From Escherichia phage N7: a DNA stretch of 38,829 nt. Each line of letters starts with the position of its first letter. Positions within the stretch are counted from its first letter, which is position 1. A program made the position numbers and the translations under genes. The stretch lies in the sequence record MH717096.1; one strand, 5' to 3'. Under the pieces are notes generated by a model. That model worked only from the letters and a program-made list of their open reading frames with translations, did not search any database and had not been told where the DNA came from. Below are positions 13,690-14,931 of this stretch, in pieces.

Positions 13690-14010
13690 TTAGCGGTTGA
13701 TGGTTGCTTTTTTCGGGTCATACCATCTCGGCCATTCTTTCAGGAATGGGAATGAGTCGGGAGCGTGGTTCTTTTTGTACGATTTAAGCAGCCTTAACCG
13801 CTCAATCGCACACTCATAAACCTCTTGTTGCCCTGTAGTCATCTCGGTCCATGAAAGGTGATCCATTGATAAGACAACGTTTTCAGCTTCTTTTATGAGG
13901 GCGTTTTTATTTCTCACCGCAGCAGCATGGCTGACAGAGCAATCCTGCCATATTCTTAAAAGCCAAATAGCTAAGCAGATGAAAAAAATGGTAGAGAGCG
14001 ATATGTACAT
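13690..14010 (-). CDS. hypothetical small membrane protein (106 aa)
   Basis: N-terminal hydrophobic helix LSTIFFICLAIWLLRIW; SD AAGGAGA before ATG; AT-rich; last gene of the mnt-side operon. Confidence 0.5.
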   Translation of the reverse strand: MYISLSTIFFICLAIWLLRIWQDCSVSHAAAVRNKNALIKEAENVVLSMDHLSWTEMTTGQQEVYECAIERLRLLKSYKKNHAPDSFPFLKEWPRWYDPKKATINR

Positions 14011-14034
14011 GCCGATCTCCTTAGATTTATCAAT

Positions 14035-14069
14035 GCTGCATGATTTTCAACAGACATCAATCATGCAGC
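14035..14069. repeat. perfect 11-bp inverted repeat (GCTGCATGATT / AATCATGCAGC) with 13-nt spacer
   Basis: Read directly; lies between the 170-aa and 106-aa genes just upstream of the latter's SD; no U-run, so not a classic terminator. Confidence 0.5.
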
Positions 14070-14090
14070 TATAGGTAATAAATCAAGAAA

Positions 14091-14603
14091 CTATTGAGAA
14101 CGTTTGTCTTTTTGAGACTCTAATATAGCCAATACCTTATAAAGAGATTGGTTTGTTGAGTCTAATTTTTGATCAGTGTTATCAATCCTTGACTGTAATA
14201 CTGATTGGTTGTTTTGGATAGTAGCCATTATCTCTGCCTTACTGGTTTGGATGTTTCCTGTTAGCTCTTGTCGTGATGATTCAACTTTATCATCTATAGT
14301 GCCTCGAATCGTCCATGTGGCGGCAACGATAGAACCAATGATAGCAACTGCAACCCCGTATAGCTCTAAACGTTTCACGGTATCACGACCTTCTTCTTTG
14401 TGTTGCTCTTCTTGTAGGCTAAATATTTGTGGTTCCTTTGACGGATTTCTGTCAGTTGGTCTGTAATACTCTGAATATTTAGCGTTTTCTATTGAACTCC
14501 ATAACGATTTGTCAAAGTCAAGGTTTTCATGTTGGCTTTGAGCATCTCCATAAATACTAGGTGATTTATTGTGAACATGTTGGTCAAACATTATCTCCAT
14601 CAC
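14091..14603 (-). CDS. hypothetical membrane-anchored coiled-coil protein (170 aa)
   Basis: Central hydrophobic helix LYGVAVAIIGSIVAATWTI; C-terminal Q/S/N-rich helical region; AT-rich; overlaps upstream gene by 20 nt. Confidence 0.5.
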   Translation of the reverse strand: MMEIMFDQHVHNKSPSIYGDAQSQHENLDFDKSLWSSIENAKYSEYYRPTDRNPSKEPQIFSLQEEQHKEEGRDTVKRLELYGVAVAIIGSIVAATWTIRGTIDDKVESSRQELTGNIQTSKAEIMATIQNNQSVLQSRIDNTDQKLDSTNQSLYKVLAILESQKDKRSQ

Positions 14604-14931
14604 CCTTTACGAATTTTCCAGAAGAGATATTTTCACTAACTTTGTTTAAACTAAAAAAGTGGAAGAAACCGCAAGTGGTGCATTGCATGGCTACCATGTT
14701 AAGACTATCGTTGCTATAAGTATCTTGATTAACAGGATTATTAGGCAAGCTTTTACCTGGTATGGATGGGCCTATAACTTCAACACCATCATCTTTTTTA
14801 AGATGCTCAGGTGCTAAAAGAGTCCAGTTTGTATTGCTGCATATTGGGCATACATAAGTTTTTTTGAATGAAGTCAAGTAATTACTAAAAGACTCAAAAG
14901 TAACTTTTAAGTATTGCTCCTTACTGCTCAT
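14584..14931 (-). CDS. hypothetical zinc-ribbon-like protein (115 aa)
   Basis: CPIC...CTTC cysteine pairs; ATG overlaps mnt stop (TAATG), implying translational coupling; AT-rich. Confidence 0.5.
   Translation of the reverse strand: MSSKEQYLKVTFESFSNYLTSFKKTYVCPICSNTNWTLLAPEHLKKDDGVEVIGPSIPGKSLPNNPVNQDTYSNDSLNMVAMQCTTCGFFHFFSLNKVSENISSGKFVKGDGDNV

Follow-up and report, generated by a model that had tools for sequence, protein, structure and literature searches.

Repressor-linked accessory genes in the sieA slot of the P22-like Escherichia phage N7: an obligate gene pair and an independent small membrane gene with a possible anti-phage role

The classic exclusion and abortive-infection systems rexAB, sieA and bstA ride on phage repressor transcripts. 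SieA is a prophage-expressed inner-membrane protein with a conserved cytoplasmic motif, FxRYPxEAxxFNK (PMC10883804). In P22 its gene lies in the region from gene 16 to gene 9, a documented hypervariable 'ant moron' (PMC2629481, PMC10883804), and only 22 of 66 P22-like phages carry it (PMC10883804). The slot between cI and N is the position of lambda rexAB and of bstA in BTP1, and represents a hotspot of repressor-linked defence genes (10.1101/2020.07.13.199331). Phage epsilon34 has an overlapping, uncharacterised gene pair, gp45–gp44, directly behind its prophage repressor, which its authors described as 'like rexA and rexB' (PMC2629481). Here we analyse a related arrangement in Escherichia phage N7 (MH717096.1; the whole stretch of 38,829 nucleotides is called the window), in which three minus-strand genes, named here g1, g2 and g3, follow the maintenance repressor gene mnt. 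The block is a mosaic of two units, an obligate g1–g2 pair and an independent g3 with its own distribution, and both units may serve in competition with other phages.

The window genome is P22-like, and the block occupies the same leftward slot as sieA in P22, between gene 16 and mnt/arc/ant and within the gene 16–gene 9 region, as the initial annotation had recognized. The P22 layout is otherwise the same, with sieA and orf59a standing where the window has g3, g2 and g1; g3 takes the identical terminal position and converges on gene 16, the two stop codons being 8 nt apart. SieA, however, acts alone and has its own promoter behind the mnt terminator, whereas g1–g2 are fused to the mnt cistron. 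Membership of the SieA family was rejected for all three proteins by BLASTP, motif search and the number of transmembrane (TM) segments. With P22 SieA as query, which is type A of the sequence types A, B and C, BLASTP matched neither g2 nor g3 better than E = 4, and a repeat comparison yielded no match for g1–g3. A regular expression for the SieA motif finds P22 SieA, and the motif is absent, even in loose form, from g1, g2 and g3. Hydropathy analysis counts four TM-like segments in P22 SieA, one each in g2 and g3 and none in g1. The comparison with SieA proposed in the initial annotation has thus revealed a shared position and no homology.

The closest functional analogy for g1–g2 would be lambda RexA/RexB, where two genes are likewise co-oriented directly behind the lysogeny repressor and code for one soluble cytoplasmic and one membrane protein. 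More broadly, the analogy takes in the repressor-linked defence genes of the cI-to-N hotspot. The resemblance does not extend to sequence, since Pfam, PADLOC and NCBIfam reveal no homology, nor to size, g1 and g2 being far smaller (115 and 166 aa). Moreover, g2 has a single TM segment instead of a multi-pass channel, and the proposed sensor, g1, is a predicted zinc ribbon. BstA, the BTP1-type abortive-infection protein encoded downstream of cI, differs in being a single protein, neither zinc ribbon nor membrane protein, and has no sequence relationship to g1–g2. No match above threshold was obtained from Pfam, NCBIfam or PADLOC for g1, g2 or g3, in agreement with the initial statement that no motif could be recognized, or for ten relatives. 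We found no papers describing the g1, g2 or g3 families or Escherichia phage HZ41 (OM022251), an unannotated record that is 100% identical across the queried 1.8 kb of the window.

The g1–g2 pair behind repressors

The three minus-strand open reading frames of the initial annotation were found where it had placed them (Table 1), and they are real genes because their families are conserved. As noted there, the mnt stop and the g1 start have TAATG in common, and the upstream gene is a true Mnt homologue with an Arc domain. The g1 protein matches the profile of phrog_4293, annotated 'unknown function', over its full length (E = 4.7e-31). The earlier description of g1 as zinc-ribbon-like is upheld by two CxxC pairs, whose cysteines C28, C31, C84 and C87 are invariant across 14 family sequences; G88 and F93 are also invariant, and W36 nearly so. 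An AlphaFold2 model (pLDDT 70.5) comprises an N-terminal helix, three strands (residues 36–39, 78–84 and 90–94) and a C-terminal helix, and generic zinc-ribbon Pfam models give sub-threshold matches in up to 10 of 14 family members. Two family-conserved CxxC knuckles on predicted beta-hairpins thus point to a zinc ribbon that may bind metal. Hydropathy analysis of g1 found no TM segment. A word-indexed search of 5.8 billion proteins returned only near-identical sequences for g1, and it took an exhaustive HMMER search of 1.84 billion proteins to reveal the family, which has 16 representative clusters. The named members are all from Enterobacterales (Escherichia, Serratia, Edwardsiella, Jejubacter, Yersinia, Providencia and Arsenophonus), every one annotated as a hypothetical protein.

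The length of g2 depends on the start codon. The GTG at 14603 gives the 170 aa of the initial annotation and other gene callers choose the ATG at 14600; the ATG at 14591 (166 aa) is more likely because both the RefSeq annotation and the PHROG profile begin there. With this start, the g1 stop and the g2 start overlap by 8 nt (ATGTTTGA). The match to phrog_24865 is again full-length (E = 1.6e-116), and this PHROG, too, is annotated 'unknown function'. Members of the g2 family share a non-conserved polar N-terminus of approximately 70–75 aa, one TM segment rich in small residues and a conserved polar helical C-terminus, with E76, G79, W93, R107, E109, Q115, E120, R135 and D137 invariant in the alignment. 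In g2 itself exactly one strongly hydrophobic 19-mer was found, at residues ~75–95. The protein had been described as a membrane-anchored coiled coil: the anchor stands, whereas the polar C-terminal 70 aa give only a weak single-register heptad score (0.42). Lysine and arginine are richer on the N-side than on the C-side flank of the TM segment in all 13 family members; an N-in/C-out topology is mildly favoured and most likely, and would place the variable N-terminus in the cytoplasm and the conserved polar helix in the periplasm. A sequence search of the PDB with the g2 profile gave no match. The coding region of g2 also contains a perfect 10-nt inverted repeat (GCTAAATATT, 14418–14427, and AATATTTAGC, 14474–14483) with arms 46 nt apart.

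The two genes travel together. A g1-like gene immediately precedes a g2-like gene in 13 of 13 viral-contig loci, and does so again in the loci L007, L011, L012, L014/15, L016/17 and L019/20, the frames overlapping by 1 to 62 nt. An apparent exception, L012, is explained by a mis-called start in the public gene call: the g2-like gene (4383–4880) is called there as 99 aa, whereas its frame extends over 165 codons when read from a GTG located 4 nt past the g1-like stop. The pair also has a preferred place. A repressor gene lies directly upstream in 10 of 11 sequence variants, coding for Mnt in two (the window type and Serratia L011) and for a CI/S24-type protein in eight, and these eight occupy the cI-to-N slot. 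Neither a promoter nor a terminator is predicted between repressor and pair in the window or in L007, where the only plus-strand promoter-like site falls after the pair and before N; consensus and terminator scans likewise predicted no such sites within the g1–g2–g3 block. Identical pairs stand behind CI proteins that are 42% (L014 versus L015) or 71% (L019 versus L020) identical, and between the window and Serratia Mnt is 81% identical, g1 33% and g2 37%. Because pair and repressor diverge out of step, g1–g2 behaves like a cassette that is mobile yet docks at a fixed position.

Such a position could be taken to indicate that g1–g2 are accessory regulators of the lysis–lysogeny switch, g2 acting as a membrane sensor and g1 as a zinc-ribbon transducer that feeds envelope signals to the Mnt/Ant or CI circuit. 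The adjacency and co-orientation with repressor genes in the 10 of 11 variants would suit this role, and a bitopic membrane protein paired with a small zinc protein in the cytoplasm is reminiscent of anti-sigma-type signalling. We consider it improbable all the same: the pair serves two structurally unrelated repressor types, the ribbon–helix–helix Mnt and the helix–turn–helix/S24 CI, and identical pairs behind CI proteins of different immunity argue against a repressor-specific partner. In addition, nearly all P22-like phages, P22 itself among them, lack the pair, which is therefore dispensable for the switch.

Relatives of g1 have other membrane partners. In L009 three genes stand behind mnt. 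The first codes for a zinc-ribbon protein of 121 aa, which matches phrog_4293 (E = 8.7e-29) and aligns to the g1 family with an hhalign probability of 85%; the second overlaps the first and codes for 110 aa, with a helix ahead of a C-terminal TM segment; the third is g3. Partners of the same kind as the 110-aa protein, a family that corresponds to phrog_6324, follow the g1-like gene behind an S24 repressor in L018 and distant zinc-ribbon genes in the phages SPN3UB and 29485 and in a Klebsiella phage. These tail-anchored helical proteins match weakly to XhlA (PF10779; 23.6 bits against a cut-off of 34.7), to a holin PHROG and to a hemolysin PHROG. Homology of g2 to the tail-anchored partners was considered and rejected (hhalign probabilities of 12% and 2.8%). 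The gp44 protein of epsilon34 belongs to phrog_6324 as well, but gp45 is not a zinc-ribbon protein and no relation between gp44 and g2 was detected (hhalign probability of 2.8%). XhlA and small holin-like proteins resemble g2 in being small, helical and bitopic; g2, however, matches neither PF10779 nor holin PHROGs, its TM segment stands before the helix and not after it, and g1–g2 lie outside the lysis cassette, oriented against late transcription. The swapping of partners, as read from these families, would fit a constant cytoplasmic zinc-ribbon protein combined with an exchangeable membrane-active effector. Small open reading frames with signal-peptide or lipobox-like N-termini follow zinc-ribbon/membrane pairs in Serratia (L011, 5034–5758), SPN3UB (L035, 3696–4359) and phage 29485 (L037, 3825–4178), which suggests clusters of several envelope-directed morons.

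These partners also bear on a toxin–antitoxin-like function, in which g2 would be a membrane toxin restrained by the coupled g1, stabilising the prophage or killing cells that lose it, with defence as a secondary effect. A layout of two small overlapping genes in which the soluble product is encoded first, a pair that moves as a cassette, and alternative partners that are weakly holin-, hemolysin- or XhlA-like are all in keeping with addiction. On the other hand, neither g1 nor g2 resembles a known toxin or antitoxin family in Pfam or NCBIfam, g1 has no recognisable DNA-binding autoregulator domain, and no promoter-like site of its own lies between the repressor and the pair; reliance on the promoter of a repressor is atypical for toxin–antitoxin loci. 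We therefore regard addiction as an unlikely primary role, although it overlaps mechanistically with abortive infection and the two are hard to separate in silico.

g3 and the mosaic structure of the block

The product of g3 matches phrog_10450, annotated 'unknown function', over its full length (E = 3.2e-52). It has exactly one strongly hydrophobic 19-mer, at residues 1–21, which confirms the N-terminal membrane anchor assigned to it initially. The genes had been described as closely spaced or coupled, and this is true of mnt, g1 and g2, which overlap; g3 is set apart from g2 by 80 nt containing a hairpin. Similarly, all three genes had been considered markedly AT-rich, which applies to g1 and g2 (GC 0.366, z = −2.9, in the lowest 1.1% among equal-sized windows of the genome) and not to g3, whose GC of 0.436 (21st percentile) is unremarkable.

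The g2–g3 spacer carries a perfect inverted repeat (Table 1). The predicted RNA fold of the minus strand at 14005–14100 has an energy of −25.9 kcal/mol (z = −2.75), and its extended stem pairs with the Shine–Dalgarno sequence of g3. Such a fold could attenuate translation of g3 or stabilise the 3' end of an mnt–g1–g2 mRNA. There is no support for a canonical terminator in this spacer, as the U-tract is missing and the terminator scan made no call.

A junction in the spacer separates two units with different distributions. Similarity to prophages that have g3 but not g1–g2 stops 19 nt 5' of the g3 start, the matches spanning positions 1 to 339 or 340 of the query 13690–14931 in 19 records. The mosaic junction and the GC break both fall between g2 and g3. 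Without g1–g2, g3 occurs at 97% identity in 16 additional complete E. coli genomes; its neighbours in two of the g3-only loci (L002 and L003) are unrelated genes, some of them on the opposite strand, and conservation in the aligned upstream regions is limited to the ribosome-binding site. In a prophage of E. coli KSC207 (L004) g3 adjoins an mnt pseudogene, in L010 a 73%-identical g3 directly follows mnt without g1–g2, and in phage mEp043 a 38%-identical homologue, gp49, stands directly after cI, upstream of PL and N. The g1–g2 pair, for its part, lacks an accompanying g3 in Serratia and at all of the CI-linked loci. The single three-gene cassette of the initial annotation does not, therefore, survive comparison of the locus across prophages.

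The complete mnt–g1–g2–g3 stretch is present at an identity of at least 99.7% in 41 of 5426 complete E. coli genomes, with the same P22-like prophage context in the one inspected (L001), and in 6 IMG/VR contigs. Among 50,697 phage records one has the block, and tblastn of g1 and g2 against these records gave nothing beyond HZ41. The L007-type pair was not found in complete E. coli genomes. Taken as a whole, the data support reading the block as an uncharacterised accessory insert at the sieA or 'ant moron' position.

The joint presence of all four genes in those 41 genomes and 6 viral contigs could also indicate one three-gene operon whose products together form a SieA-like block to DNA ejection. 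The genes are all co-oriented in the sieA slot beside the ejection-protein genes, and the distant locus L009 repeats the order of zinc-ribbon protein, membrane protein and g3. Nonetheless, a joint machine has little to recommend it given the separate occurrence of g3 (16 E. coli genomes, L010, mEp043) and of g1–g2 (CI-linked loci, Serratia), the coincidence of mosaic junction and GC break between g2 and g3, and the lack of SieA similarity, motif and topology alike.

Several further observations were made in the g3-bearing loci. In L004 the mnt gene (5467–5619) is annotated as a truncated pseudogene next to an intact g3 coding for an identical protein (WP_000275950). A strong terminator-like hairpin, with a 12-bp stem followed by a T-run, lies at 5389–5415 in the E. 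coli K71-77 prophage (L002), ~70 nt upstream of g3 on the same strand, the neighbouring gene being divergent. The assemblies of E. coli 0H24 and 0H26 each contain a 39,448-bp circular 'plasmid' record (NZ_CP081786.1, the locus L003, and NZ_CP081778.1) that is a P22-like phage genome; both strains also have a chromosomal g3 match, which suggests that excised circular prophage DNA was assembled as a plasmid.

Possible roles in the lysogen

The initial annotation had singled out the block as a prime candidate for an exclusion or defence module, and this status is strengthened by the finding of relatives of g1–g2 and of g3 directly downstream of Mnt or CI in many unrelated prophages. We estimate at roughly 0.45 the probability that g1–g2 and g3, as putative inner-membrane morons co-transcribed with the repressor, have an anti-phage role overall, a reading based on sequence comparison and analogy.

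In this scenario two independent morons would ride the leftward mnt transcript of the immI region and, for that reason, would be made in the lysogen, presumably from Pmnt. The g1 protein would act in the cytoplasm as sensor or regulator, bound to the tail that g2 exposes there, and g2 would be a membrane effector that, once a superinfecting phage has been detected, compromises the membrane by oligomerising. The infection might then be aborted or, alternatively, DNA entry at the inner membrane might be disturbed; of these two versions, abortive infection is somewhat more likely than an entry block. A Rex-like sensor/effector logic, or that of a toxin and its neutraliser, is favoured for g1–g2 because a soluble partner is hard to explain in a simple entry blocker and because related zinc-ribbon proteins pair with holin-like membrane proteins. 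For g3 we favour a separate role as a small inner-membrane exclusion factor that would act alone, because it sits exactly where sieA does.

Several points weigh against an anti-phage function. A position downstream of a repressor indicates lysogenic expression at best, and such slots hold genes with other roles too. None of the PADLOC defence models matched the window proteins or the ten relatives. The g2 protein has one TM segment and not a channel-like multi-pass fold, the charge bias of its flanks is modest and its coiled-coil character weak. Expression of g3 from Pmnt could be limited by the spacer hairpin and its pairing with the ribosome-binding site. Finally, docking behind a repressor is not universal: the variant L016/L017 lies at a prophage edge with no adjacent repressor gene in the available sequence, and SPN3UB-type pairs of zinc-ribbon and XhlA-like genes belong to a moron cluster upstream of the tape-measure gene and do not directly follow a repressor.

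The nature of the carriers raises the question of lysogenic conversion unrelated to phage competition, in which these small envelope proteins would alter stress tolerance, membrane homeostasis or survival in the animal host. Most carriers belong to a single large set of isolates from humans and cattle in which the prophage is stably maintained, and repressor-linked morons are not always defence genes. A different P22-like prophage, that of the adherent-invasive E. coli strain LF82, shows 6–40-fold induction of its mnt end inside macrophages (PMC9928086), but it lacks the g1–g2–g3 cassette. In addition, no signal peptide, lipobox or match to a virulence family was found in the window proteins, and the characterised occupants that we looked up for both slots, sieA, rexAB and bstA, are exclusion or abortive-infection genes (PMC10883804; 10.1101/2020.07.13.199331). 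Conversion is thus not a probable explanation.

Returning to the anti-phage role, a more specific form of it may be put forward tentatively. The g1–g2 pair could be the first example of a hitherto unrecognised kind of anti-phage system, made of two components and carried by temperate phages of Enterobacterales, combining a small zinc-ribbon sensor of phrog_4293 with an exchangeable effector (phrog_24865 or the XhlA-like phrog_6324) and docking behind Mnt or CI, and g3 and mEp043 gp49 could form a second, independent family of single-protein exclusion factors that use the same docking sites.

Genome context and significance

The features of the locus and of its surroundings are collected in Table 1. 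Homologues of the gene 16 protein of the window have PF26808 (Phage_P22_gp16) recorded on them. Mnt of the window is 48% identical to P22 Mnt over residues 1–40 and its product bears the RefSeq label 'Arc family DNA-binding protein'; divergent from mnt lie arc, the sar antisense RNA, ant and the tailspike gene. Because the sar RNA is present, the P22-type immI circuit (mnt, arc, sar, ant) is complete.

Table 1. Features at and around the mnt-linked block, in coordinates of the window
Feature	Position	Strand	Remarks
Gene 16-type ejection (DNA transfer) protein	11675–13681	+	phrog_770 'DNA transfer protein', E = 8e-178; final gene of the ejection-protein cluster
g3, small membrane protein, 106 aa	13690–14010	-	phrog_10450; WP_000275950; N-terminal TM segment continuous with a helical hairpin
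Mosaic junction	14029		End of similarity to g3-only prophages
Perfect 11-bp inverted repeat, 13-nt loop	14035–14069	-	GCTGCATGATT / AATCATGCAGC; in the g2–g3 spacer; no U-tract
g2, single-pass membrane protein, 166 aa	14091–14591	-	phrog_24865; TM segment at residues ~77–95; alternative starts at 14600 and 14603
g1, predicted cytoplasmic zinc-ribbon protein, 115 aa	14584–14931	-	phrog_4293
mnt, ribbon–helix–helix maintenance repressor, 79 aa	14931–15170	-	Pfam Arc PF03869, E = 4.8e-13; leads the leftward transcription unit
Candidate Pmnt promoter (TTGAAA, 17-nt spacer, TAGCAT)	15195–15223	-	Consensus match only; just 5' of the mnt ribosome-binding site
sar antisense RNA of the immI region	15426–15493	-	Rfam RF00262, 94 bits against a gathering score of 43

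The divergent spacer between mnt and arc (15171–15263) contains two copies of TAGTAGTAC (at ~15207–15215 and ~15226–15234) and a TTGACA hexamer; the repeats look like Arc/Mnt operator half-sites overlapping divergent promoters. Elsewhere in the window, a gene for a CI-type repressor (28434–29084, minus strand) is directly followed by an N-like antiterminator gene (27814–28119, minus strand), and the cI-to-N moron slot is empty. Downstream of N, two early-left open reading frames on the minus strand (25761–26783, 340 aa, phrog_1376/21365; 26918–27283, 121 aa, phrog_3054) belong to PHROGs without an assigned function.

The initial interpretation is partly right: what occupies the sieA slot is an accessory module of novel composition that is linked to lysogeny, but it is not one cassette and is unrelated to SieA. 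It is an uncharacterised variant of a well-known kind of element, the prophage moron co-transcribed with a repressor. The comparative signal for this g1–g2/g3 module is unusually clean, two unannotated protein families showing the same docking behaviour in several Enterobacterales genera and with repressors of two unrelated types. Should the pair prove to be a defence system, it would have a very compact sensor/effector design of ~280 aa in total, the genes that follow Mnt or CI would provide a rule for mining further systems, and the pair could help to explain phage resistance among the E. coli isolates with this prophage, which are mostly from humans and cattle. If it is not, g1–g2 would still represent a conserved membrane module that is probably expressed in the lysogen.

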